Shown here piece after piece: positions 602-12,381 of a DNA stretch of 12,381 bases (within the stretch, counting starts at the first letter, position 1; each line of letters begins with the position of its first letter). The notes under the pieces were generated by a model, which was not told the origin of the DNA, did no database searches, and was given only the letters and a program-made list of their open reading frames with translations. The stretch is from a virus (lineage: Duplodnaviria > Heunggongvirae > Uroviricota > Caudoviricetes). A program made the translations under genes and the position numbers. The DNA lies in the IMG/VR virus record IMGVR_UViG_2703718850_000011; one strand, written 5' to 3'.

Positions 602-1606
602 ATGGACCAAAGTATGACAATCGAATTCTGTCTGGCTGTCTTGACAAGTAAATCTGTGATAGCCCTTCTTAATTTTCTTTTTCTCGCTTTAGTAATAGTG
701 ATGGGAGCTCTGCTCGGAAGCACGCTTCGAACTGGAAAAAACAGCGATACTAGTGACAAAAAGTTCATTGGTAGCACGCATATGATAGGTATTGGTGCTG
801 CTTTTATCTGCGTCCCCTTCATAGCTTCATTTCTACATCTAAATTATCAGTCACTTTTGCTTCCGCTAGCCGATACAACAGCAGCCGTATACATTGAACA
901 GTTGTTCATGCTGATATCTCTTGCAGGCATAGCTTCCTATCTTGGTTATGGGCTACTTGATAACATTGCAAACAAAGTTCTTCAGAGCCAGGTGCAAGAG
1001 ATTGGCCAGGAGCAAAAAGAAGCCAAACACTCTATCGAAGCTTTAGTTAATGAGAATAAGCAAATCAAGAGCAATGAGAAAAAAATCAGGCTCGAACTGC
1101 TGTATTTGAAAGCTAAAGATGCTGTAGAGTCAGGTCAGCGATATGGTGAGAAAACAACTGAAGAAGATAAGCTAGCTTCTAAGAAGAAATACAATGATGC
1201 CCTTGCTTTTTTAGATGAGGGGCTTAGAGAAATCAATGAAGAAGATGACTATCATTCATTTGACAGATTCATGGTTTTGAAAGCATTTACCCTAAAGCGA
1301 ATTGATGATATTGCAGGCGCGCTGGAAATTGTTAAAAAATTATTAGTGAAAGATAAAACAAATCCAGTCTTGCTTTACAACATGGGTTGTTACCTTTTGC
1401 TATCTAAGCAGCATAAAGATGAACAAGAAGTTAAAGATTTCATTATGAAAGCTTTGACTGTTACTCCAGAGAAAGAGGCGCATAAACCCTTGCAGAAAAA
1501 AATCATAGAAAAAGTTTTGGCGCGCTTGGATTCAGATATACAGGATCTGTTTAATGATGATGAGTTAGCCAGAATCAGAGAGATGGTTGGGAGCAAAGCA
1601 AACTAG
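602..1606 (+). CDS. Hypothetical membrane protein: three predicted N-terminal TM helices, coiled coil, TPR-like helical C-terminal domain; AT-rich cargo gene
   Basis: Only long ORF in the AT-rich island. Hydrophobic segments at about residues 8-38, 60-80 and 97-118; charged coiled coil at about 125-165; helical-repeat C-terminal region. Codon usage strongly A/T-biased, unlike the neighbouring phage genes. Followed by an intrinsic terminator. No obvious Shine-Dalgarno before ATG 602 or the alternative ATG 614. Confidence 0.7.
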   Translation: MDQSMTIEFCLAVLTSKSVIALLNFLFLALVIVMGALLGSTLRTGKNSDTSDKKFIGSTHMIGIGAAFICVPFIASFLHLNYQSLLLPLADTTAAVYIEQLFMLISLAGIASYLGYGLLDNIANKVLQSQVQEIGQEQKEAKHSIEALVNENKQIKSNEKKIRLELLYLKAKDAVESGQRYGEKTTEEDKLASKKKYNDALAFLDEGLREINEEDDYHSFDRFMVLKAFTLKRIDDIAGALEIVKKLLVKDKTNPVLLYNMGCYLLLSKQHKDEQEVKDFIMKALTVTPEKEAHKPLQKKIIEKVLARLDSDIQDLFNDDELARIREMVGSKAN

Positions 1607-1831: not shown

Positions 1832-2395
1832 TTATTCTGGCACGAAATTCCTCACCGACTTCAAATCCGCCATATTATTCAGCTCTTCCTTCATCTCCCG
1901 CTGGCGACGATAAATCTCGTCATTGCGATCGACCTGTGCCTGAACCATTGCAGTAAGCAGTTCATCCAGTTGTTGCATCGACAGTTTCACCTGCTGGTTT
2001 TCTGCATCGCCCCATACCATGGTTTTTCGCGCAGTGTCAGACTTTGATGCCATTACTGCCGGATAAAGACGAGCCAGTGAGTCGGCCCCAGCATTCCAGG
2101 TACGACCGTTCCATTCGAACGTGAACGGCTGCGCTTCCTGTTCTGTGCGCCAGGCTTCGATTTCCCGCTTTTTGGCATCTCTGGCTGCGGCAATAACTTC
2201 AGGCGTGACTGTGAACGGGGCGATTTCACCCCATCTGCCACTCTGCAGTTCCTGCCAGATTTGCCGGCCAGTTTCTGCTGTATCATTTGCCGAAGCTGTG
2301 TATGGAAGTGGCATTTCCATACCTGAAAACACGACCATGCAGTCAACATCTCCGGTTTCAAGATACCTTTGTTCGCTGATTTTTTTTATTTTCAT
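1832..2395 (-). CDS. Putative tail fibre assembly / chaperone protein (assigned by position), 187 aa from ATG at 2395
   Basis: Immediately downstream of the tail fibre gene with coupled start (TGATG). Size is typical for tail fibre assembly proteins (lambda Tfa 194 aa). I do not recognise the conserved Tfa sequence itself, so the family assignment is positional only. The six-frame ORF starts at GTG 2398; the ATG at 2395 is the likelier start. Confidence 0.5.
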   Translation of the reverse strand: MKIKKISEQRYLETGDVDCMVVFSGMEMPLPYTASANDTAETGRQIWQELQSGRWGEIAPFTVTPEVIAAARDAKKREIEAWRTEQEAQPFTFEWNGRTWNAGADSLARLYPAVMASKSDTARKTMVWGDAENQQVKLSMQQLDELLTAMVQAQVDRNDEIYRRQREMKEELNNMADLKSVRNFVPE

Positions 2396-3858
2396 CACAT
2401 CGTCCTTATAAAAGCAGCAATAATAAACTCACCTTCTCCGGTGTAATCCGGAGTTCCGGATAATGCACGGTAAACACCCGGCAATGTGTGCTTCTCTGTA
2501 CCAGAAAGCCCAATCTTCGGCGACGATAATGCTCCATCCGGAACACTGAATACCACGGGAGTAAGGACGGAGCCCGGGTAATATTGCCCTCGTACGACGC
2601 TAGCTGTTTTAGTGCTGCCACGGCTATTAAAGGCTGCCAGTGTTATGCTTCCAGCATACGGATCACCATAATTATCGTTTGTGGTCATGCTCAGGATTTT
2701 GGCAATATCATACAGGTCAATATTTATTTTCTCCCATTCACTCAGTGAAGGGCCATGTATGGCATCGTATGTTGCCCGATACAGTTCACCGTTCATCCCG
2801 TAAAAAACAGCCATCTTCAGCATCAGCGGGACAGTAAGGTTATTCCGCATCTCATCAGCGAAAAATAAATCAATCACACCTGTAAACTGTACTTCCGGTA
2901 TAATTTCGCAGTCAGCGCTGACCGTATACCGCCCCGGTGTGGCATTTGAGATCCAGTCAAGAAGCACTTCCTTCGACGAAAAGCTGAGAACGTCACCTTT
3001 TGTGAAGATATGCCCGAATCCCAGACTTCCTGCAACAGCGGCCCGCCCCTGCGTTCTGTCATAAATGTCTGACTGAAGCCCATAATTTCCGCCTGCTGCT
3101 GAGTTTCCACTATTTCCATTGATACCCAGAACGTCACACATCTCTTCGGCTGTGGATTGTGACAACAGCTGTTTCCCTTTTTCAGAAACAGGAGCCAGAG
3201 AACACTGCCCGTTACCGCTAAAACTGGGAAACCCATCTTCACCGGATGGAAGACGGCCTAACGCAGTCAGAACGGGATTTAAAGGCTGTTTTCCGTCCAG
3301 CATCTTCATTATCGTTACGGAAAACGCCGGGTCATTACCCAGCGCCTCCGCCAGTTCGTTCAGCGTGTCCAGGGTTTCCGGAGAAGAACCCACAAGAGCA
3401 GCAAGCAGTTTGCGGACAAACGCCGCATTCACTGTTTCCAGACCTGAAGCATCGTCCGGTGGTGTCGGTGTCATAGGGGTACCGGTGAAGACCGGACTAT
3501 CCAGTGACGCTTTTGTCTTCACCTCATTCATGACCTTACTGACTGCAAGGGATGTGGCGGCCTCTGTCTGCGAAGTGCTGTCAGTACGGTTACTGAGCTT
3601 GACAACTCCCTTTGTGGTCGTACTGGCATCTTCCAGGCCCACAGCAGATGCAATCTCCTCTGCCCGTTTTGCCGCATTTTCTGCGCGTGTTGCTGCAGAC
3701 TCAGCAGAACTTTTGCTCTGCACTGCCACCGCTGCACTACCTGCAGCCTCTTCCGCCTTACCGAATGCCTCGCCGGCCAATGATGCCGCCGCTGCTTCAT
3801 AGCCCGCCGCGGTGGATGCGCTCTGTGCCGCTGCCGTTTCAGAAGACCTGGCGTTCAT
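2395..3858 (-). CDS. stf: Side tail fibre protein, C-terminal fragment (487 aa from first ATG); frame stays open upstream to about 4155 without a start codon
   Basis: Ala/Ser-rich shaft repeats (KTSETNA..., SKSSAESAATRAENAAKRAEEIASAV...LEDASTTTKGVVKLS) followed by a globular C-terminal domain, with a small putative chaperone gene immediately downstream (1-nt TGATG overlap). The N-terminal part of a full-length fibre is absent. Confidence 0.75.
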   Translation of the reverse strand: MNARSSETAAAQSASTAAGYEAAAASLAGEAFGKAEEAAGSAAVAVQSKSSAESAATRAENAAKRAEEIASAVGLEDASTTTKGVVKLSNRTDSTSQTEAATSLAVSKVMNEVKTKASLDSPVFTGTPMTPTPPDDASGLETVNAAFVRKLLAALVGSSPETLDTLNELAEALGNDPAFSVTIMKMLDGKQPLNPVLTALGRLPSGEDGFPSFSGNGQCSLAPVSEKGKQLLSQSTAEEMCDVLGINGNSGNSAAGGNYGLQSDIYDRTQGRAAVAGSLGFGHIFTKGDVLSFSSKEVLLDWISNATPGRYTVSADCEIIPEVQFTGVIDLFFADEMRNNLTVPLMLKMAVFYGMNGELYRATYDAIHGPSLSEWEKINIDLYDIAKILSMTTNDNYGDPYAGSITLAAFNSRGSTKTASVVRGQYYPGSVLTPVVFSVPDGALSSPKIGLSGTEKHTLPGVYRALSGTPDYTGEGEFIIAAFIRTM

Positions 3859-4155
3859 CTCGGATGTTTTTGCCTCCTTCGCGGCATTTTCTGCCGCCGT
3901 TGCCGAGGAGGCTGCACCACTGGCGCTTGATGATGCGTTCGTTTCTGATGATTTTGCTGCCTCTTTTGAGGCCTCCGCCTCACGGGCTGAGGTGGCAGCT
4001 TCTGACGCTTTCGCGGTCGCGGTGGATGCTGAGGTGGCGGCTGATTGTTGTGACGCTGCCGCATTCGTTTCTGACGTTTTCGCGGCAACAGCACTGGTGG
4101 CCGCCGCGCTTTTCGAGGACTCTGCAGCGGCTGCACTTTTTGATGCCTCAGAGTC
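3590..4155 (-). repeat. Imperfect tandem Ala/Ser-rich peptide repeats of the tail fibre shaft (coding repeat)
   Basis: Translation in the stf frame: EASKSAAAAESSKSAATSAVAAKTSETNAAASQQSAATSASTATAKASEAATSAREAEASKEAAKSSETNASSSASGAASSATAAENAAKEAKTSEMNARSSETAAAQSAS... The recurring KxSETNA / SSA units generate spurious long ORFs in all other frames. Confidence 0.55.
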
Positions 4156-4394
4156 TCATGTAACTGCGCCGTTAACCCGGACGTGCTGACGTCCCGCCCG
4201 GCAATCCGTACCTGATACCAGCCGTCGCTCAGTTTCTGACGAAACGCCGGGAGCTGTGTGGCCAGTGCGCGGATGGCTTCAGCCCCCGTTTTCACACGAA
4301 GGTCGATGCGGCGGCCAAATCGTTGTAAATCCCCGTAAAGGCAGATGCGCGCCATGCCCGGTGACGCCAGAGGGAGTGTGTGCGTCGCTGCCAT
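3855..4394 (-). pseudogene. I: Tail tip assembly protein I, N-terminal about 82 codons only, continuing out of frame into tail-fibre repeat sequence
   Basis: Starts MAATHTLPLASPGMARICLYGDLQRFGRRIDLRVKTGAEAIRALATQLPAFRQKLSDGWYQVRIAGRDVSTSGLTAQLHETL (gpI-like). From about 4148 downward the frame yields an Arg/Pro/Gln-rich low-complexity string, which is the alternate-frame reading of the Ala/Ser-rich tail-fibre repeats that run in another frame. Confidence 0.7.
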
Positions 4395-5035
4395 TTGTCG
4401 GTATACCTCTCTCGTTTGCTCAGTTGTTCAGGAATATGGTGCAGCAGCTCGCCGTCACCACAGTAAATGGCGGCATGATTCGGCACCGATGAACCAAAGC
4501 AGCACAGCAGCACATCGCCCGGTTGTGCTGATGACAACGGCACCTGATACAGCCCTGTGGCCTCCAGATTATCCAGATAGAGATTCTGACCGTGACGCCA
4601 CCAGTCATCCTCACGATGAAAATCCGGCATCTCAATCCCCGCCAGATGATAAGCATCCCGGAACAGCGTGTAACAGTCCGTCACCCCGTGCTCAAAGCAC
4701 CGCCCGGTAAGATGCGGCACACAGCGGAACTTATGAATCGTCCCCCGGCAGACCAGCCACCACGGCAAATCACTCTGCACCTGCAGCCGCCGGTCGGCCT
4801 CACTCAGCCAGGGCAGACCACCGGGGTGGCTGTGGACCAGCGCCACTATCTCACCCTGCATTTCTGCCTGCAGCCAGTCCTCCGGAACCATCCGGAAATA
4901 CGCCTCCGGCTCACCGGAGATATTCACGCAGGGGAAATATCTTTCCCCCTCCGGCGTGCTTACCACGAAGCCGCACGACTCCGCTGGCGCACATCGCCGG
5001 GCGTGCGCCAGAATCGCTGATTCTGTCTCTGTCAT
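4292..5035 (-). CDS. K: Tail tip assembly protein K with JAB/MPN and NlpC/P60 domains, 247 aa from ATG at 5035
   Basis: JAMM motif HSHPGGLPWLSEAD (H-x-H-x7-S-x2-D) followed by an NlpC/P60-like region with candidate catalytic Cys (GVTDCYTLF) and His. The six-frame ORF extends to 5077, but the ATG at 5035 (MTETESAIL...) sits 1 nt after the L stop and is the likelier start. Overlaps the I start by about 100 nt, as in lambda. Confidence 0.85.
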   Translation of the reverse strand: MTETESAILAHARRCAPAESCGFVVSTPEGERYFPCVNISGEPEAYFRMVPEDWLQAEMQGEIVALVHSHPGGLPWLSEADRRLQVQSDLPWWLVCRGTIHKFRCVPHLTGRCFEHGVTDCYTLFRDAYHLAGIEMPDFHREDDWWRHGQNLYLDNLEATGLYQVPLSSAQPGDVLLCCFGSSVPNHAAIYCGDGELLHHIPEQLSKRERYTDKWQRRTHSLWRHRAWRASAFTGIYNDLAAASTFV

Positions 5036-5039
5036 GGGA

Positions 5040-5738
5040 TTACTGCGAAAGTTTGTTAATGGAAAGGAAGCCGCCAAAGTTGCCGACGTTATTGCGGAAC
5101 TTACAACCGCTCAGGCATTTGCTGCATTTATCCTTCGTGATATCGGACGTTGGCTGGTCATATTCATCCGCGACCGCCGGACCGTGATAACCGCACTCAT
5201 CGCCGCGATAGGTCCAGGTGCAGGTGTTGGCCAGCATGATACGTCCCGGAAAAACAGCGCCGTCCGTTTCCGTCGGCGTGGACAGTACAAAGGAGGCACT
5301 CACCGCGCTCAGTTCGCTGCACTGCTCAATGCGCCAGCGGCTGATCACCTCCTGCTCCGGATCGGCGTCACTGTTTCCGTTGACGAAGTTCACCGCATCC
5401 AGAAAACGGGCGTAAACCTTACGCCGGACCACCGTTCCGCCGACCAGACTCTGCAGATCTTCCGCCATCCCGGTGACCATACCGTACAGGTTAGAAACCG
5501 TCAGCGTGGGGCGCGTACTGGTGCCTTTGCCATTCAGTTCAAAACCACTCCCCTGAATGGGATACGGCTGATACTGTCGCCCCTGCCAGGTGACCGGCTC
5601 ACCTTTTTCGTTCTGCTCATTACAGAAAAAATAACGTTCTCCACCGACCTCTGTCAGGTCGATTTCCCAGAGCACCACGCTGGCCGACTGCTCCGCACGG
5701 GTGCATTCATTCAGTGTTTCCTGCCGGATATCCTGCAT
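5040..5738 (-). CDS. L: Tail tip protein L, 232 aa
   Basis: 232 aa, the lambda gpL length. C-terminal cysteine cluster (TCTWTYRGDECGY ... CSKCLSGCKF) typical of gpL. Gene order H-M-L-K. Confidence 0.9.
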   Translation of the reverse strand: MQDIRQETLNECTRAEQSASVVLWEIDLTEVGGERYFFCNEQNEKGEPVTWQGRQYQPYPIQGSGFELNGKGTSTRPTLTVSNLYGMVTGMAEDLQSLVGGTVVRRKVYARFLDAVNFVNGNSDADPEQEVISRWRIEQCSELSAVSASFVLSTPTETDGAVFPGRIMLANTCTWTYRGDECGYHGPAVADEYDQPTSDITKDKCSKCLSGCKFRNNVGNFGGFLSINKLSQ

Positions 5739-6067
5739 CAGTTCACCACCTGTTCAAATTCTGCGCTGAACTCAACACGCAGCATACTGACCCGCGACGA
5801 CCATTTTGCGCAGGTCACCTTTATCTGCCGCCACTCATAAGGCGGCGTCCACAGAAAGGATTTCCAGCCCCCGTGCTCAGCCAGAAACGACTCAAGCGCC
5901 GTGGCCTCCCAACGGGGAACAGAAAGCGTCACGCTGTACGTTTTCAGGTCGGCATTCAGCCCGGCAGGCGCTCGCTGGGAATAGCCATCACCAAAGCGCA
6001 CCTTTCTTACGGAAGGGGCCGAAGCCACATCCATACCGGGTTTCACTTTCCAGCGGAAGGTTTTCAT
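5738..6067 (-). CDS. M: Tail tip protein M, 109 aa
   Basis: 109 aa, the lambda gpM length. Position between H and L; ATGA overlap with H stop and with L start. Recognisable gpM sequence (FRWKVKPGMD..., WKSFLWTPPYEW). Confidence 0.88.
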   Translation of the reverse strand: MKTFRWKVKPGMDVASAPSVRKVRFGDGYSQRAPAGLNADLKTYSVTLSVPRWEATALESFLAEHGGWKSFLWTPPYEWRQIKVTCAKWSSRVSMLRVEFSAEFEQVVN

Positions 6068-8559
6068 CGTCCACCTCCGGAGAACAGACCACCATCGCGC
6101 ATCTGCCCGGTCACAACATCCATTGCCGCCTTACGGGCTACGTCATAAACCGCCTTCAGCGCCTGTGGCCCTATCTGACCGTTCGTGCCGTCGTTGTTAA
6201 TCACCACATGGTTATTCTGCTCAAACGTCCCGGACGCCTGCGAGCGGCTGTCCGCCATGCTGCCCGGTGTACCGACATAACCACCGGTGGCATAGCCGCG
6301 CATCAGCCGGTAGAGATTTCCCACGCCAATCCGGCTGGTTGCCTCCTTCGTGAAGACAAATTCACCACGGTGAACAATCCCCGCTGGCTCATATTTGCCG
6401 CCGGTTCCCGTAAATCCTCCGGTTGCAAAATGGAATTTCGCCGCAGCGGCCTGAATGGCTGTACCGCCTGACGCGGATGCGCCGCCACCAACAGCCCCGC
6501 CAATGGCGCTGCCGATACTCCCGACAATCCCCACCATTGCCTGCTTAAGCAGAATTTCTGTCATCATGGACAGCACGGAACGGGTGAAGCTGCGCCAGTT
6601 CTGCTCACTGCCGGTCAGCATCGCCGCCATATTCTGTGCAATACCATCAAAGGTCTGCGTGGCTGCACTTTTTACCTGCAACATACTGTCCGTGGCGCTC
6701 TCTTCCCACTCACTCCAGCCGGACTTCAGGCCTGCCATCCAGCTCCCGCGAAGCTGGTCTTCAGCCGCCCAGGTCTTTTTCTGCTCTGACATGACGTTAT
6801 TCAGCGCCAGCGGATTATCGCCATACTGTTCCTTCAGGCGCTGTTCCGTGGCTTCCCGTTCTGCCTGCCGGTCAGTCAGTCCCCGGCTTTTCGCATCAAT
6901 GGCGGCCCGTTTTGCCCGTTGCTGCTGTGCGAATTTATCCGCCTGCTGCGCCAGCGCGTTCAGGCGCTCCTGATACGTAACCTTGTCGCCAAGTGCAGCC
7001 AGCTGGCGTTTGTACTCCAGCGTCTCATCTTTATGCGCCAGCAGGGATTTCTCCTGTGCAGACAGCTGGCGACGTTGCGCCGCCTCCTCCAGTACCGCGA
7101 ACTGACTCTCCGCCTTCCACAAATCCCGGCGCTGCTGGCTGATTTTCTCATTTGCTCCGGCATGCTTCTCCAGCGTCCGGAGTTCAGCCTGAAGCGTCAG
7201 CAGGGCAGCATGAGCACTGTCTTCCTGACGATCGCCCGCAGACACCTTCACGCCGGACTGTTTCGGCTTTTTCAGCGTCGCTTCATAATCCTTTTTCGCC
7301 GCCACCATCAGCGTGTTGTAATCTGCCTGCAGGATTTTTCCGTCTTTCAGTGCCTTATTCAGTTCCTCCTGACGGGCGGTATATTTCTCCAGCGGTGTCT
7401 GCAGGCGTTCGTAAGCCTTCTGCGCCTCTTCGGTATATTTCAGCCGTGACGCTTCGGTATCGCTCTGCTGCTGCGCATTTTTGTCCTGTTGACTCTGCTG
7501 CTCAGCCTTCTTTCGGGCGGCTTCAAGCGCAAGACGGGCCTTTTCACGATCATCCCAGTAACGCGCCCGCGCTTCATCGTTAACAAAATAATCATCCTTG
7601 CGCAGATTCCAGATGTCGTCTGCTTTCTTAAACGCAGCCTCTGCCTTAATCAGCATCTCCTGCGCGGTATCAGGACGACCAATATCCAGCACCGCATCCC
7701 ACATGGATTTGAATGCCCGTGCTGTCCTGTCTGCCCAGGTCTCCAGCGTGTCCATGTTCTCTTTCAGGCGGCGGGTCTGGTCATCAAACCCTTTCGTTGC
7801 GGCTTCGTTCGCCGCCTGCAATGCCCCGGCTTCATCGCCGGAACGCTGCAACTGAGCAACATACGCAATCTGTTCCGCCGTCACGTTATGGAACTGGCGT
7901 GCCATCGCCGTCAGCCCCGACGTCGGGTCTGTGGTCAGCTTCCCGAAGGCTTCAGCGACCTTGTCCACCTCCACGCCGGATGCAGAAGAGAAACGCGCCA
8001 CACTCTGGCTGATGGACGCAATCTGAGCCTCACCGCTTACCCCCGCCTTAACCAGTGCGCTGAGTGACTCGCTGGTCTGGTTAAACGTCAGCCCTGCCGC
8101 CTGCCCGGCTCTGGACAGGACCAGCATACGATCTGCCGTCAGACCCGACTGATGACCGGAAAGGACCAGCGTTTTGTTGAAATCGGACAGGGTTGAGTTG
8201 CCCTGATACCAGGCATACGCCAGCGCACCGGTCGCCACCGCCAGCGAGGTGGCCCCGACCATCGGCAGGGTGATCGCACCGGCAAGCCCCCTGAACATGG
8301 GGATCATCCCGCCGAAGGAGTCCTTAACCTGACCACCCTGTTGCAGCAGGATCAGCCACGGACTCTGCCCGCCTGCAAGCTGCGTGGCCACGTCGGTGAA
8401 CTGCGCAGGCAGCATACGCATGGCAGCTTTATACTGCCCGACGGAAATCCCCGCTTTCTGTGCAGCCAGTGCCTGTCGGCTCAGCGACTGTTCAACGACT
8501 GCCGCTGTTTTTTTCGCATCACTTTCCGTACCGGAAAAATGACGCCTGACTCTGGCCAT
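6064..8559 (-). CDS. H: Tail tape measure protein (lambda gpH family), 831 aa from first ATG; native 5' end apparently lost
   Basis: About 830 aa with coiled-coil-rich centre and glycine-rich C-terminal region (GIVGSIGSAIGGAVGGGASASGG), located immediately upstream of M-L-K-I. The same frame is open from 8628 and encodes ...GDLVVDLSLDAARFDEQ upstream of the ATG at 8559 with no start codon, so the native N-terminus (about 22 aa in lambda H, 853 aa) is clipped. Confidence 0.9.
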   Translation of the reverse strand: MARVRRHFSGTESDAKKTAAVVEQSLSRQALAAQKAGISVGQYKAAMRMLPAQFTDVATQLAGGQSPWLILLQQGGQVKDSFGGMIPMFRGLAGAITLPMVGATSLAVATGALAYAWYQGNSTLSDFNKTLVLSGHQSGLTADRMLVLSRAGQAAGLTFNQTSESLSALVKAGVSGEAQIASISQSVARFSSASGVEVDKVAEAFGKLTTDPTSGLTAMARQFHNVTAEQIAYVAQLQRSGDEAGALQAANEAATKGFDDQTRRLKENMDTLETWADRTARAFKSMWDAVLDIGRPDTAQEMLIKAEAAFKKADDIWNLRKDDYFVNDEARARYWDDREKARLALEAARKKAEQQSQQDKNAQQQSDTEASRLKYTEEAQKAYERLQTPLEKYTARQEELNKALKDGKILQADYNTLMVAAKKDYEATLKKPKQSGVKVSAGDRQEDSAHAALLTLQAELRTLEKHAGANEKISQQRRDLWKAESQFAVLEEAAQRRQLSAQEKSLLAHKDETLEYKRQLAALGDKVTYQERLNALAQQADKFAQQQRAKRAAIDAKSRGLTDRQAEREATEQRLKEQYGDNPLALNNVMSEQKKTWAAEDQLRGSWMAGLKSGWSEWEESATDSMLQVKSAATQTFDGIAQNMAAMLTGSEQNWRSFTRSVLSMMTEILLKQAMVGIVGSIGSAIGGAVGGGASASGGTAIQAAAAKFHFATGGFTGTGGKYEPAGIVHRGEFVFTKEATSRIGVGNLYRLMRGYATGGYVGTPGSMADSRSQASGTFEQNNHVVINNDGTNGQIGPQALKAVYDVARKAAMDVVTGQMRDGGLFSGGGR

Positions 8560-8609
8560 CTGCTCGTCAAATCTGGCCGCATCCAGACTTAAATCAACGA
8601 CCAGATCGC

Positions 8610-9746
8610 CTAACTGACCTTCGAGTAGTCACGGGACAACTGTTCGTAGGAAACGCCAAGACCGGCGGCGATATACCGCAGCAGCGCCTGTTCAAGCGCA
8701 GAAAATCCATTGTCTGAATCCTGCGCGGTCTGCAGTTTCAGATCATCCCCAGGGAAAAGGTGCGGAATTTTGACACCGCCCAGCGTCACGTGATTCGTGT
8801 CATACCAGCTGGAGAACTTCTCCAGAATATTAATAAGCGGATTATCCTTCTGCCCCTGCGGCGCACCGGCGATATATTCAAAGGCCTTTTCGGTATCAAG
8901 TTCACTTTCGATTGTGGCTGCATACATGGCCTTCACAATGGCCGACTGAAGCTGTGTTACCTGCAGGGAATCGAGCATCTTCAGCCGCTCCATGACGCTG
9001 TAAAACTGATTAGCCCCACGGGTCTGCCCGTCCTCCACCGGCTCGAAAATATGCAGCATGGCCGGACGCCCGGTGGGAAGTTCACGCGGGATCCGTTCCC
9101 ATCCTCCACTACCAGAGAACGGAAAATCATCCTCACAGATGTGGTACGCGACGGCACGGCCATATCGATCGACCTCCACACCGGCCCGCAGAAAACGGTT
9201 CCCCATACCGTGTCCAGGCGTGTCCACCCGTTTCGGACTCACGGCTTTAAAACGCGTACGGAATAACTGCGTGCTTTCCGTATCCCAGACCGGCTGCACA
9301 AAGATTTCGCCGTTAAACGCATGAACGCCCACACCTTCACGGATAAATTCCGTGAACGTGCGTTTTCCTTCCACGTCGATCTCGCCAAACATCCCTTCGG
9401 CGTATTCCGACCAGGCCGCCTCCACCTCATCGACAAAGCTTTTTGCTGCGGTCTCCCGCATCCCCAGCCAGCGCCAGTTCGGACGGTAGCTGATCAGAAA
9501 CATATGCCCGACAATGTGATCTTTATGCAGGGCCACCGCATTAGCCGCTATTCCGTTATTGCGCACCAGATCATCTGCCCGGGCATTCCCCAGACGCAAC
9601 GCGGGCAGCAGGGCCGCATCGGCACTCTGCGCCGGTGGCAACCACTCCGCCATTTGCCCGCCAAATCCTGCGCCGCCCCCGTTGTAGCTGAGACTCTCAC
9701 GAAGCGGAACGCCGTTCACATCAATCAGGACAGGCGTTAGTTTCAT
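8610..9746 (-). pseudogene. B: Portal protein (lambda gpB family), truncated: 378 codons, where lambda-type portals are about 530 aa
   Basis: The N-terminal and central portal regions are recognisable (DDLVRNNG, LFRTRFKAVSPKR, EPVEDGQTRGANQFYSVMERLKMLDSLQ, AIVKAMYAATIESELDT, LRYIAAGLGVSYEQLSR). The frame ends at TAG 8610-8612 and the C-terminal third is absent. The tape-measure frame begins within about 20 bp. Confidence 0.85.
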
Positions 9747-9949
9747 AACCTCACTCCCAGCGGACGACGGCGACGCCGGGTTGTCCCCAGTACCGACTCC
9801 GCATCATTGATCGCCCGGTTAAGCTCATCCAGAGAAGCCGCCGTATATTCAATTCTGCGACCATCTTTCTGGACAGACACCACCCGTTTACCGGTTAATA
9901 AATCAAGGCGCGCCTGACGCAGCGCCTGCAGTTCAGCGACTGTAACCAT
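9743..9949 (-). CDS. W: Head-tail joining / head completion protein gpW, 68 aa
   Basis: 68 aa, the same length as lambda gpW, with the conserved core TGKRVVSVQKDGRRIEYTA. Its stop overlaps the portal ATG (ATGA). The annotated start overlaps the end of A by 17 nt, so the exact start is uncertain. Confidence 0.85.
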   Translation of the reverse strand: MVTVAELQALRQARLDLLTGKRVVSVQKDGRRIEYTAASLDELNRAINDAESVLGTTRRRRRPLGVRL

Positions 9950-11861
9950 TCACTCCTCCGGACAGCTTCGCTGCCAGTTCTTTCAGGGTTGGCCGGGTCG
10001 TCTCTTCTTCCCGGGATTTTGCCAGTACAGCCAGATCAAGCTGCCAGCGTTGCACGGACACACGTAATGCCGCGTAGGCATACACCAGGCAGTCCAGCGC
10101 TTCGTTACGCCGCTTTTTGTTATCCCACAGCAGACGCATCTTTCCTTTTTCCCACTTCTCCACAAGCTCTTCCGCGACCAGTTGCTGCGCCTCTGTCTGC
10201 GAAAAAATCTCCGGATCATCAGGAAAACGGATGGCATACGACGTGGCTTCATCCACAGGCGTGGGATCGGCTTTCATACGGGCATAGAGAATTTCTTTTG
10301 CGGTGTCCGTCCCCACTTCACACAGATACACGCCCCGCTGATTGCGGGTTTTTGGCATGGTGATCACCGGCTTGCCATAGACAGATGCGCCTTTTACCGG
10401 CAGCACCCGGAAAACACCGTGTTTTTTTGACCTCTGATAAACGATTTCTCCATCGATCCCCCCGATGTCCCAGCAGACACGGGAAATAGTCATTTCGGTT
10501 CCGTCTGCATGGCGGTATTTTTTGTTGATCGCCGCATCCACACGTAACAGCGTCTCTTCCTCATCGGGACGCCCCATAATGATGATTTTATCCACCAGAA
10601 AGGCTTCCTCTCCCGGAGCCCATCCCCAGACATACATCTCAAAACGGTTTCGCTGCGAGTCAATGCCCGCCGTCAGATAAACCACCCGGGCAGGCACCGC
10701 CGCCGTGTAACGCACAACCTTATCCATCAGTACCTGGTGATCGAGTTTTTCGCCCACGGCCTCTTCCCAGGTCTCGCCCAGCGTGGTGTTCACAAAGGTT
10801 TTCAGGCCGTTGGGATCTTTCAGTGCATCCAGCCAGTCATAGACAATCTGTACCCAGGTGGTGAACGGACTGTACGCCGTCCAGATATGGAAAGTGATGG
10901 AGCGCGGCGGCGGAATTTCATCACCCCGGTCGCTGAAAAACATCAGACCGTCACGGGTCCACATGCCCGTGTTTTCACAGATCCACCGCCCGTTGCTCTG
11001 GTCAAGCTCAGACTGATGGATCACGCAGCCATGATGTTCACAGAGGTAGAAAACGCTTTCTGGGCTGTCCTTCTCCCATTTAAGGCCAAAAGGCGTGGAT
11101 TCATCGCCAAATTTCAGATACTGCTCCTCCCCACAGTGCGGGCAGGGCACATAAAAACGCATGAAATGCGCCGACTCGTTGGCCGCTTTTTCGATCTGGC
11201 AGGAGCCTTTTATTTTAGGCGTCGAGCCGCGAATGGATTTTGGCCATACAGAGCCCTCAATACGCTTATCCCCCAGCAGGGTTGGCGAGCCCTCTTTTTC
11301 AACATCCGGCTCGAACGAGGAAAGTTCGTCATAGCAGACCACATCCACGGATTTTTCACGGTAGTTTTTGGCGGCAGCACCACCCAGGCACCAGAAACCC
11401 ACACGGGAAGTGAATCTTTTTAATGTCAGCGTGTTATCCCGGTGCTTACGTCCCAGCCAGGGGGAAAGAATTTTCAGACAGGGAACATCCCGTAATGTTG
11501 ACTCCACATGAGACTTCATAAAATCTTCAGCGGCAGAATCCGTAGGCTGAAACAGAAGACTGTTACGGTTTTTATGCTCAATAAAGTAACCAATAACGCC
11601 CATCAGCATTTTGGTGTAACCGACTCGAGCTGATTTTATAAGATTAATCGTGCGGATCCGGTCATTACCCATGCAGTTCATTATTGCCACCTGAAATGGC
11701 AACGTCTTCCACCGCCCAGCAAGATAAGAGGACTCCGGGGGCAAATAATAATTTTGATCGGCCCATTCAACGGTGGTTACAGGCAGTGGGCGTAAAAGCC
11801 CACGAAGTGCCACTCCACAAACAACAGCAAAGTTATTTAGCTGCTTCTCTGAGGTATTCAT
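9933..11861 (-). CDS. A: Terminase large subunit (lambda gpA family), 642 aa
   Basis: Length matches lambda gpA (641 aa). Contains the P-loop-like KSARVGYTK motif and conserved blocks ([57 protein letters not shown]) recognisable as the gpA terminase family. Sits between Nu1 and W. Confidence 0.93.
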
Positions 11862-12381
11862 CCAGCATCTCCGGTAACTTCTCTGCCGTTGATGCGCATC
11901 GGTTTGCCGCCTTTGCTATATCGGTTTTCAGGAAATCAAGCATAGCGGGCGTCAGTGCCGAAAACTGTCTCTGCATGGACAATGGAATGGAGTCAAGAAT
12001 GGCAGAGATCTCCTGTGCCAGTCTTCCCAGAGCAAAAAGGCAAAACCCTGTATCAATGACCTGCCCACTGTCGCGGGCATTTTTCAGTTCCTGTGCATCT
12101 GCCTGTGCCTTCGTCAGTCGGTAACGTTCGTAATCAATGGTGCCGGGCTGAAGGTCTGATTCGCTGGCAGCCCTCAAATCCTCGACCTCTTTACGGAGTT
12201 TTTCGTTTTCAATATCAGCTTCGCGCTGCGCATACCACTGAATGGCAGCAGTTGTATCAAAAACTGATTCAGTCCCTTTCCCTCCACCAGAAACTAGTGG
12301 TACCCCCTGACTCTGCCAGGCGGTGATAGTCCTGACATCAACGCCAAAAATATCGGCCAGTTTTTTCTTATTGACGTTCAT
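11833..12381 (-). CDS. nu1: Terminase small subunit (lambda Nu1 family), 182 aa, apparently complete; start codon is at the window edge
   Basis: Translation [30 protein letters not shown]... has the N-terminal helix-turn-helix typical of Nu1, the right length (about 181 aa) and overlaps the start of the large terminase gene by 29 nt, as in lambda. Confidence 0.9.

Follow-up and report, generated by a model that had tools for sequence, protein, structure and literature searches.

A portal/tape-measure deletion junction in a defective lambda-like prophage and a recurrent breakpoint at portal codon 379

In phage 21 and in a prophage of E. coli strain 1303, a 530-aa portal gene is followed by C/Nu3, D, E, FI, FII, Z, U, V, G and T before the tape-measure gene H begins. 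How, then, does a 12,381-nt stretch of lambda-like DNA (hereafter the window) come to carry a short portal frame that directly abuts H? The original prediction took this arrangement for a deletion junction, and the intact relatives bear it out, in that neither has a short portal immediately in front of H. By its sequence, the window is best assigned to the late-gene arm of a phage-21/lambda-like prophage from the lineage of the potB-adjacent prophage of E. coli 1303 (NZ_CP009166.1, 1342725-1366378), which serves here as the intact reference, L002. BLAST divides the window into three blocks colinear with L002: window 12381-8611 corresponds to L002 1446-5216 at 100% identity (0 differences in 3,771 nt), window 8612-4149 to L002 12001-16464 at 99.55%, and the remainder to L002 at 99.98%, with gaps of 6,786 and 4,487 bp between them. 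Gene order is that of the phage 21/lambda late operon and the 1303 prophage, with 95-100% nucleotide identity over Nu1, A, W, portal codons 1-378, H, M, L, K and the tail-fibre region, whereas the DNA from the portal C-terminus through T, and from the I C-terminus through J to the 5' end of the tail-fibre gene, both present in the 1303 prophage, is missing. All gene identities and both truncations are backed by Pfam searches (Table 1), and Rfam and tRNA scans of the window returned no matches. The window contains no prophage end, its relatives L002 and L003 adjoin potB, and the ATG of Nu1 is its exact terminus; cos lies beyond it. In L005, where sequence further upstream is available, the same IS3 lies upstream of Nu1 (at ~0.7 kb) as in strain 1303.

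Table 1. Genes, gene fragments and deletion junctions along the window
Feature	Window positions	Strand	Basis
Nu1, terminase small subunit, 182 aa, intact	11833..12381	-	Pfam Phage_Nu1 E 1e-83; 100% identical to E. coli 1303
gpA, terminase large subunit, 642 aa, intact	9933..11861	-	Pfam GpA_ATPase + GpA_nuclease
gpW, head-tail joining protein, 68 aa, intact	9743..9949	-	Pfam gpW
Portal gene, truncated, codons 1-378 of 530	8610..9746	-	ORF; Pfam Phage_portal_2; 530-aa homologue at L002 4081-5673
Deletion junction D1, TA common to portal codon 379 and H codon 5	8611..8612	.	BLAST vs L002
H (tape measure) codons 6-22, without start codon or ribosome-binding site	8560..8610	-	translation; H start = L002 11988
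Tape-measure ORF from internal ATG, 831 of 853 aa	6064..8559	-	Pfam TMP_2 + Tape_meas_lam_C
M, tail tip protein, intact	5738..6067	-	Pfam Phage_min_tail
L, tail tip protein, intact	5040..5738	-	Pfam Phage_tail_L
K, tail tip protein (JAB/NlpC-P60), intact	4292..5035	-	Pfam; gene call in L005
I gene, truncated: ~82 I codons, then out-of-frame tail from tail-fibre DNA	3855..4394	-	Pfam Lambda_tail_I residues 14-85 only
Deletion junction D2, 3-nt microhomology CTG	4149..4151	.	BLAST vs L002
Side tail fibre ORF, 5'-truncated, 487 aa	2395..3858	-	Pfam Phage_fiber_2; L002 20408-21511 + downstream
DUF4376 protein, tail-fibre accessory position	1832..2398	-	Pfam DUF4376 E 2e-15

Alignment to L002 maps the first breakpoint, D1, to window 8612/8611, where the two alignments overlap by 2 bases, TA; the junction thus reads portal|H with a 2-nt microhomology (the search for one was anticipated in the original prediction), zero filler bases and no IS. 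The portal frame ends as predicted, after 378 codons (ORF 9746-8610, minus strand, TAG at 8612-8610), this stop being itself a product of the join. What remains of the portal covers positions 2-335 of the 354 in the Pfam Phage_portal_2 profile, so that it lacks the last ~19 of these and, relative to the full-length protein (~530 aa), the C-terminal 152 residues. The tape-measure frame is, likewise as predicted, already open ahead of the ATG at 8559: read on the reverse strand, 8640-8500 gives a stop, LLEGQL, GDLVVDLSLDAARFDEQ (17 H residues) and Met. The suggestion that about 50 bp replace the head and tail region has to be given up, however; nothing was put in its place, and those base pairs are H codons 6-22. 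Homology to H begins at window 8612, and the ORF from the internal ATG is 98-99% identical to H in many lambda-like phages. All that H itself has lost is 13 nt at its 5' end, start codon included; the ribosome-binding site upstream and the translational coupling to T went with them. The capsid and tail-shaft genes are indeed missing; they fall inside the 6,786-bp gap, which in L002 holds the portal C-terminus, protease/scaffold, decoration, major capsid, FI, FII, Z, U, V, G, T and H codons 1-5 (gene content according to RefSeq annotation of the 1303 prophage and phage 21).

A second deletion, D2, had gone unremarked. At window 4149-4151, 4,487 bp of L002 are missing, comprising the remainder of I, the whole of J and, from the side tail fibre gene, ~540 nt at the 5' end; this join, too, has a short microhomology, CTG (3 nt), without filler and without IS, and past it I is frameshifted. 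Among the genes for virion assembly, Nu1, A and W are complete (full-length by Pfam), as are M, L and K in the tail tip, whereas the full-length portal, protease/scaffold, decoration, major capsid, FI, FII, Z, U, V, G/GT, the start of H, part of I and all of J are gone. The element therefore cannot build a capsid or a tail tube, as had been predicted, nor can it form a tail tip; with J removed by D2, the defect is larger than was claimed. That terminase, W, M, L and K are still intact probably reflects nothing other than the recency of the deletions. A phage satellite (PICI, cf-PICI or P4-like) was considered and rejected: every gene in the window belongs to late DNA colinear with the prophage, and each loss either truncates a gene or breaks its frame.

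Could D1 be an artefact of assembly? E. coli genomes commonly carry several near-identical lambdoid prophages, a frequent source of misjoins, and D1 occurs in none of the complete E. coli genomes. Nevertheless, the concern voiced in the original prediction appears unfounded and a chimera is scarcely credible. Contigs of GCA_900480535.1 and GCA_900478705.1 are 100% identical to the window over 9,772 nt spanning D1 and D2, and Logan assembly ERR3333574 has both deletions at 99.99% identity (1 SNP in the 9,772 nt), so that the same junction and flanks recur in at least three independently made assemblies. Moreover, the overlap of 2 nt is far below any assembler k, which makes a de Bruijn-graph chimera impossible, and comparable junctions are present in closed long-read genomes. 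D1 was found neither in complete E. coli genomes nor in GTDB species representatives or IMG/VR contigs, and it is thus limited to a small lineage. Scans for the exact junction gave no match in GTDB genomes, IMG/VR or JGI metagenomes, a scan with the degenerate pattern TTAD gave only intact alleles with the synonymous TAT codon, and 1,857 of the 1,865 complete E. coli records with this portal segment run uninterrupted over the breakpoint.

The window is thus very probably a defective prophage that arose through two internal deletions by illegitimate recombination, D1 being the 6.8-kb event that fused a truncated portal to a start-less H. In portal codon 379, a DNA end or a nascent strand with the terminal sequence ...GGTCAGTTA would have been joined, via the 2-nt TA, to ...CCGGTA|GGCGATC in H codon 5, with loss of the intervening DNA from the portal C-terminus through C/Nu3, D, E, FI, FII, Z, U, V and G to T; the join would have created the TAG right after codon 378 and left H without its start codon and ribosome-binding site. 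The CTG-mediated D2 would have taken J and cut into I and the side tail fibre gene. The pathway may have been RecA-independent microhomology end joining or template switching, and the truncated products are presumably non-functional. All this is known biology, namely prophage decay via microhomology-mediated illegitimate recombination, with one exception that was unexpected: the portal-side breakpoint recurs.

The same two bases, the TA of portal codon 379 (L002 5215-5216, termed Hot1), lie within the crossover interval of all seven independent junctions identified, that is, of the window and at least six other independent prophage remnants. Each uses a different partner site. The window joins its portal to H (J1), L003 (three complete genomes and 49 contigs) to the C-terminus of an S49 protease (J2), strain GF4 to DUF4376 (J3) and Logan SRR22535167 to Z (J4); P0005 has an in-frame fusion to lom via an 8-nt microhomology (J5), P0022 joins a Salmonella-type portal to gpJ (J6), and in strain BA92 Hot1 supplies the right-hand partner in an internal deletion (J7). 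The left flanks are distinct alleles, 95-98% identical. In the position-unbiased survey of the 1,865 records, eight lacked an intact copy as best match, and all five of these that were read have a Hot1 junction (the three J2 genomes, GF4 and BA92). Further downstream by ~110 nt, at codon 414, a second site, GGAAG, is used by three further deletions and one duplication, and what BA92 keeps is precisely the 112-nt stretch bounded by the two sites. No earlier description of such a hotspot came up in searches of the literature. Not counted as junctions were 19 contigs ending 0-3 nt after codon 379, which are better explained by synonymous polymorphisms in codons 379 (TAC/TAT) and 380 (TCA/TCT), and 'MSYST...' ORFs seemingly starting at Hot1, which proved to be frameshifted in error-rich assemblies.

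What sets the left end of D1? The recurrent breakpoint indicates that this end was not randomly chosen, and a plain random-microhomology model fails to explain it. One possibility that deserves serious attention, though we would stop short of calling it probable, is a site-specific event at the codon-379 TA, such as a recurrent double-strand break, a nick or polymerase stalling and dissociation, followed by microhomology joining to any available partner. It would refine rather than replace the explanation by two illegitimate-recombination deletions. The shared dinucleotide in seven junctions, the different alleles of their left flanks, the uniform outcome in the inspected partial records, the reuse of GGAAG and the BA92 segment spanning exactly the two sites all speak in its favour. 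On the other side, the analysis turned up no enzyme or structure to account for Hot1 (inspection by eye revealed no fitting gyrase, IHF, Chi or restriction motif), single-strand folding energies are ordinary (z -1.0 and -0.35), Hot1 is unlike cosN, such portal junctions were not found in IMG/VR or JGI metagenomes, and the enrichment is only partly unbiased, several junctions having come from searches anchored on Hot1 itself. The more far-reaching proposal, which we regard as speculative and rather unlikely, is that portal genes of the lambda family contain two fragile sites defined to the nucleotide, GGTCAG(T/C)TA|Y at codon 379 and GGAAG at codon 414. A nuclease or nickase of host, phage or mobile-element origin that has so far escaped recognition, or else a fixed replication stall, would act there and repeatedly seed deletions, and thereby defective lambdoid prophages, in E. 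coli and Salmonella. Alternatively, an IS may once have occupied codon 379 as a preferred target and been removed with flanking DNA by its transposase and IS-excision enhancer (IEE), with microhomology end joining and no IS left behind. IEE-dependent excision yields flanking deletions of a few nt to >40 kb, and IEE has microhomology end-joining activity and is found in >33% of E. coli assemblies (PMC9943667). Such excision would account for the fixed end, for the retention of either side of the site (J7) and for the missing IS, and it accords with the IS3 in the window lineage and with the microhomologies at both repaired junctions (TA and CTG), which are not pathway-specific. It is nonetheless improbable, as it requires independent insertions at one dinucleotide in no fewer than four diverged alleles as well as in the Salmonella allele, and repeat insertions at a second site 110 nt away, while no inspected portal copy has an IS at codon 379, the resident IS3 lies ~4.6 kb from D1, outside the window, and the junction bears no IS or IS footprint.

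Might selection instead have favoured the arrangement as a functional one, for instance as a satellite-like or domesticated module with terminase, portal fragment and tail-tip genes? The remaining ORFs are all intact, and four of the seven Hot1 junctions place TAG or TAA right after codon 378, so that these four share one 378-aa product. Yet the absence of any difference from the intact prophage left of D1 makes the element too young for purifying selection to have left a mark; H is without its start, I out of frame and J missing; the products of the other Hot1 events differ, being variously a fusion to Lom, a tail of 14 aa or an in-frame internal deletion; PADLOC gave no hits; and selection could not fix one identical dinucleotide. 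We consider this reading very improbable. Several specific causes of a site-specific event were also tried and set aside. A hairpin or cruciform is at odds with the ordinary folding energies, and a mosaic boundary with divergence that shows no step among 111 intact portals. Terminase miscleavage was dismissed on the true cosN flank, GGTCTGCCACG|GGGCGGCGACCT, which is unlike the hotspot; a cosN-like 9-10-nt string, ATGGGGCGGCGAAAA, does occur between the two recurrent sites, but at ~50 nt from each it leaves the base-precise ends unexplained. The IS3 terminal repeats have no convincing similarity to the hotspot, and an integron core site, IS608 TTAC cleavage, Tc1/IS630 TA targeting, a type I-E CRISPR protospacer and a serine-recombinase dinucleotide crossover were weighed along with gyrase, Chi and IHF motifs, those open to a test each failing for at least one junction and none being claimed.

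Defective and cryptic lambdoid prophages of E. coli include the cryptic prophages of K-12 and the defective prophage pool of O157 Sakai. Like these, the element described here is lambdoid and presumably chromosomal, has been disabled by an IS insertion as well as by internal deletions, and retains many intact ORFs; unlike them, it is very young and near-identical to an intact relative, so that its breakpoints can be read at single-base resolution. With microhomology-mediated, RecA-independent illegitimate recombination in E. coli, IEE-associated deletions included (PMC9943667), it shares microhomologies of 2-3 nt, the absence of filler and kilobase-scale loss, but it differs in that one and the same dinucleotide serves repeatedly as an endpoint, with many partners, and in that no IS lies at or beside the junction. 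Even on its own, the D1 scar documents a young prophage turning defective, with head, tail shaft and J lost in two microhomology events, and it carries a practical lesson for annotation, as terminase and tail-tip genes look intact in elements that ought not to be scored as intact prophages. Should the hotspot be borne out by an unbiased census, prophage inactivation would run in part through particular fragile sites within a conserved structural gene, and the mechanism of illegitimate recombination, or that of prophage domestication, would become accessible to study.

The right-hand side of D1 has a peculiarity of its own. In the segment from H to the truncated I, 13 of the 20 mismatches with strain 1303 fall within the first ~600 nt right of the junction. 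Because of this clustering, and because L002 only stands in for the exact parent, H may contain a recombination patch, or the right partner in the D1 event may have been a second, closely related prophage.

Both sides of the junction between the portal gene and the tape-measure gene (H), here termed D1, are matched by a single prophage, the one adjoining potB in E. coli 1303 (NZ_CP009166.1, 1342725-1366378; L002), which serves as the intact reference. Window 12381-8611 equals L002 1446-5216 with zero mismatches, window 8612-4149 corresponds to L002 12001-16464 at 99.55% identity, with the dinucleotide TA common to the ends of both blocks; the breakpoint thus maps to window 8612/8611 and the microhomology sought there is this TA. 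When 8000-9200 was compared with phage genomes by megablast, H of many lambda-like phages was likewise matched (98-99%) only from window 8612 downward. What is missing at D1 amounts to 6,786 bp of strain 1303, i.e. portal codons 379-530, the S49 protease/scaffold, the decoration protein, the major capsid protein, FI, FII, Z, U, V, G, T and the first five H codons, in the same gene order as in phage 21. The alignment to L002 and the E. coli 1303 annotation therefore bear out the predicted loss of the capsid and tail-shaft module. ORF calls agree with a portal frame that stops at 8612-8610 after 378 codons, and the reverse-strand translation of 8640-8500 (a stop, LLEGQL, GDLVVDLSLDAARFDEQ, then Met) with a tape-measure frame open from 8628 and carrying 17 genuine H residues ahead of its first ATG at 8559. 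The idea that about 50 bp replace the head/tail module has to be abandoned, since these base pairs are H codons 6-22; no foreign DNA is present at the join in the alignment to L002. Whereas the 3,771 nt left of D1 show 0 differences from strain 1303, the H-to-I' block has 20 mismatches, 13 of them within ~600 nt to the right of D1 (window 8017-8470). The 5' part of H would hence represent a different allele, being either a recombination patch or a sign that the right-hand parent was a closely related second prophage.

Could D1 have been created by assembly? It is absent from all complete E. coli genomes searched, and at least six contigs encode precisely this 378-aa portal protein. Over 9,772 nt spanning both this and a second junction (D2), contigs of GCA_900480535.1 and GCA_900478705.1 match the window at 100%, the Logan assembly of ERR3333574 differs from the window by one base, and the same IS3 as in strain 1303 lies upstream of Nu1 where upstream sequence exists. 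An assembly-graph chimera is ruled out by the overlap of only 2 nt. Together, the identical contigs, the shared IS3 and the short overlap show that D1 is genuine and has been passed on within a small lineage; recurring as it does in other assemblies, it is not the artefact against which the original prediction had cautioned.

At D2, window 4151-1 (L002 20949-25099, 99.98%) overlaps the preceding block by CTG at window 4151-4149, and 4,487 bp of strain 1303 (L002 16465-20951) are skipped, comprising the rest of I (C-terminus), J in its entirety and the 5'-most ~540 nt of the side tail fibre gene. Both the aberrant I ORF and the fibre ORF without a start (table below) result from this deletion. 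Both scars carry the signature of RecA-independent, microhomology-mediated illegitimate recombination. H no longer has its start or its coupling to T. The prophage is predicted to be unable to form proheads, tail tubes or a tail tip, which upholds the earlier view that neither capsid nor tail tube can be built. The window is a young defective prophage, its other ORFs remaining intact because the events are recent, as judged from the unchanged left flank, and not because of selection.

Features of the window
Feature	Position	Strand	Evidence
Nu1	12381-11833	-	Pfam
gpA	11861-9933	-	Pfam
W	9949-9743	-	Pfam
Portal ORF, 378 codons	9746-8610	-	Pfam match ends at profile position 335/354
Tape-measure ORF	8559-6064	-	Pfam
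M, L, K	between tape-measure ORF and I ORF	-	Pfam
Aberrant I ORF, 179 aa	4394-3855	-	Pfam match covers only residues 14-85
Tail-fibre ORF, 487 aa, start-less	3858-2395	-	Pfam
DUF4376 gene	after tail-fibre ORF in reading order	-	Pfam
Hypothetical gene, 334-aa predicted membrane protein	602-1606	+	no confident family

Every phage gene is encoded on the minus strand. The window end, 12381, is the exact Nu1 start codon, which places cos just beyond it, and both the source lineage and E. coli 1303 have a complete IS3 (AAT target duplication) ~0.7 kb upstream of Nu1; the coordinates for this region are L005 1449-2707 and ~3180-3366. For the 334-aa protein, Pfam gives a sub-threshold match to the three-TM domain YLATT (21.3 bits vs cutoff 26.7), and PADLOC gives none. 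It is encoded by a cargo gene at the end of the prophage, and E. coli 1303 carries this gene too.

The deletion was correctly found and interpreted and belongs to an already known class; the interest of the window comes mainly from a recurrent portal breakpoint. In other prophage remnants, met while searching for D1 elsewhere and each aligned to intact partner sequence, the portal gene breaks off at the identical base.

Rearrangements at portal codon 379
Junction	Source	Partner (right-hand unless stated)	Join or microhomology
J1	window (D1)	H	ccggTA/GGCG
J2	L003, three complete genomes, 49 contigs	S49 protease C-terminus	tcaggTA/AGGC
J3	strain GF4, different chromosomal site	DUF4376 gene	ccggTA/GGTG
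J4	Logan contig, left flank identical to window	Z	ccatTA/ACCG
J5	P0005	lom, in-frame fusion	8 nt, TCAGTTAT
J6	P0022, Salmonella-type portal	middle of Gifsy-1-like gpJ	TAC
J7	strain BA92	portal codon 276, in-frame internal deletion; hotspot is the right-hand partner	TAT

At least seven independent rearrangements thus share this crossover point: L002 5215-5216 lies inside all seven crossover intervals, with seven different partners, and every junction keeps ...GGTCAGTTA or its Salmonella equivalent. This TA of codon 379 is found at window 8611-8612 and, in the loci compared, at L003 6096-6102, L004 ~8101, L008 2271, L133 5165, L134 ~4550 and L135 6998-7003. Different alleles, 95-98% identical, make up the left flanks, so the events are independent; they lie on diverged E. 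coli alleles and on one of Salmonella type. Four of the seven create an immediate TAG or TAA and hence a 378-aa product of identical length. In an E. coli survey that was position-unbiased within a 400-nt window, the intact copy was not the best match in only 8 of 1,865 records, and all five of these that were read (three J2 genomes, GF4, BA92) break at codon 379.

What might direct crossovers to this dinucleotide? Folding is ordinary, which speaks against single-strand structure, there is no divergence step as at a mosaic boundary, and the site is unlike cosN. Nineteen contigs from different assemblers (L138-L145, carrying P0135) end 0-3 nt past codon 379, most likely through graph branching at the synonymous TAC/TAT (379) and TCA/TCT (380) and not as further junctions; ORF starts seemingly at the hotspot are frameshift artefacts. 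Transposase together with the IS-excision enhancer (IEE) can produce IS-anchored flanking deletions with microhomology repair (PMC9943667). An origin of this kind is improbable here, however: it would call for recurrent insertion into a single dinucleotide on diverged alleles, and the copies inspected carry no IS at that position. The hotspot is therefore reported as a robust side observation that none of these candidates accounts for.

Another site used repeatedly is GGAAG at codon 414 (L002 ~5319-5326), ~110 nt downstream. It is a breakpoint in three more deletions, whose partners are S49, L (the case of a lambda-type portal) and, in BA92, the H C-terminus, and also in a Salmonella tandem duplication; the loci involved are L146, L147, L135 and P0168. 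Roughly midway between the two sites, within the segment deleted from the window, portal ATGGGGCGGCGAAAA (L002 ~5262-5276) matches 9-10 nt of the 12-nt cohesive-end GGGCGGCGACCT plus the preceding G, a cosN-like resemblance that may be chance. BA92 retains exactly the 112 nt between the codon-379 and codon-414 sites with a junction on each side, resembling a templated insertion from serial template switching.
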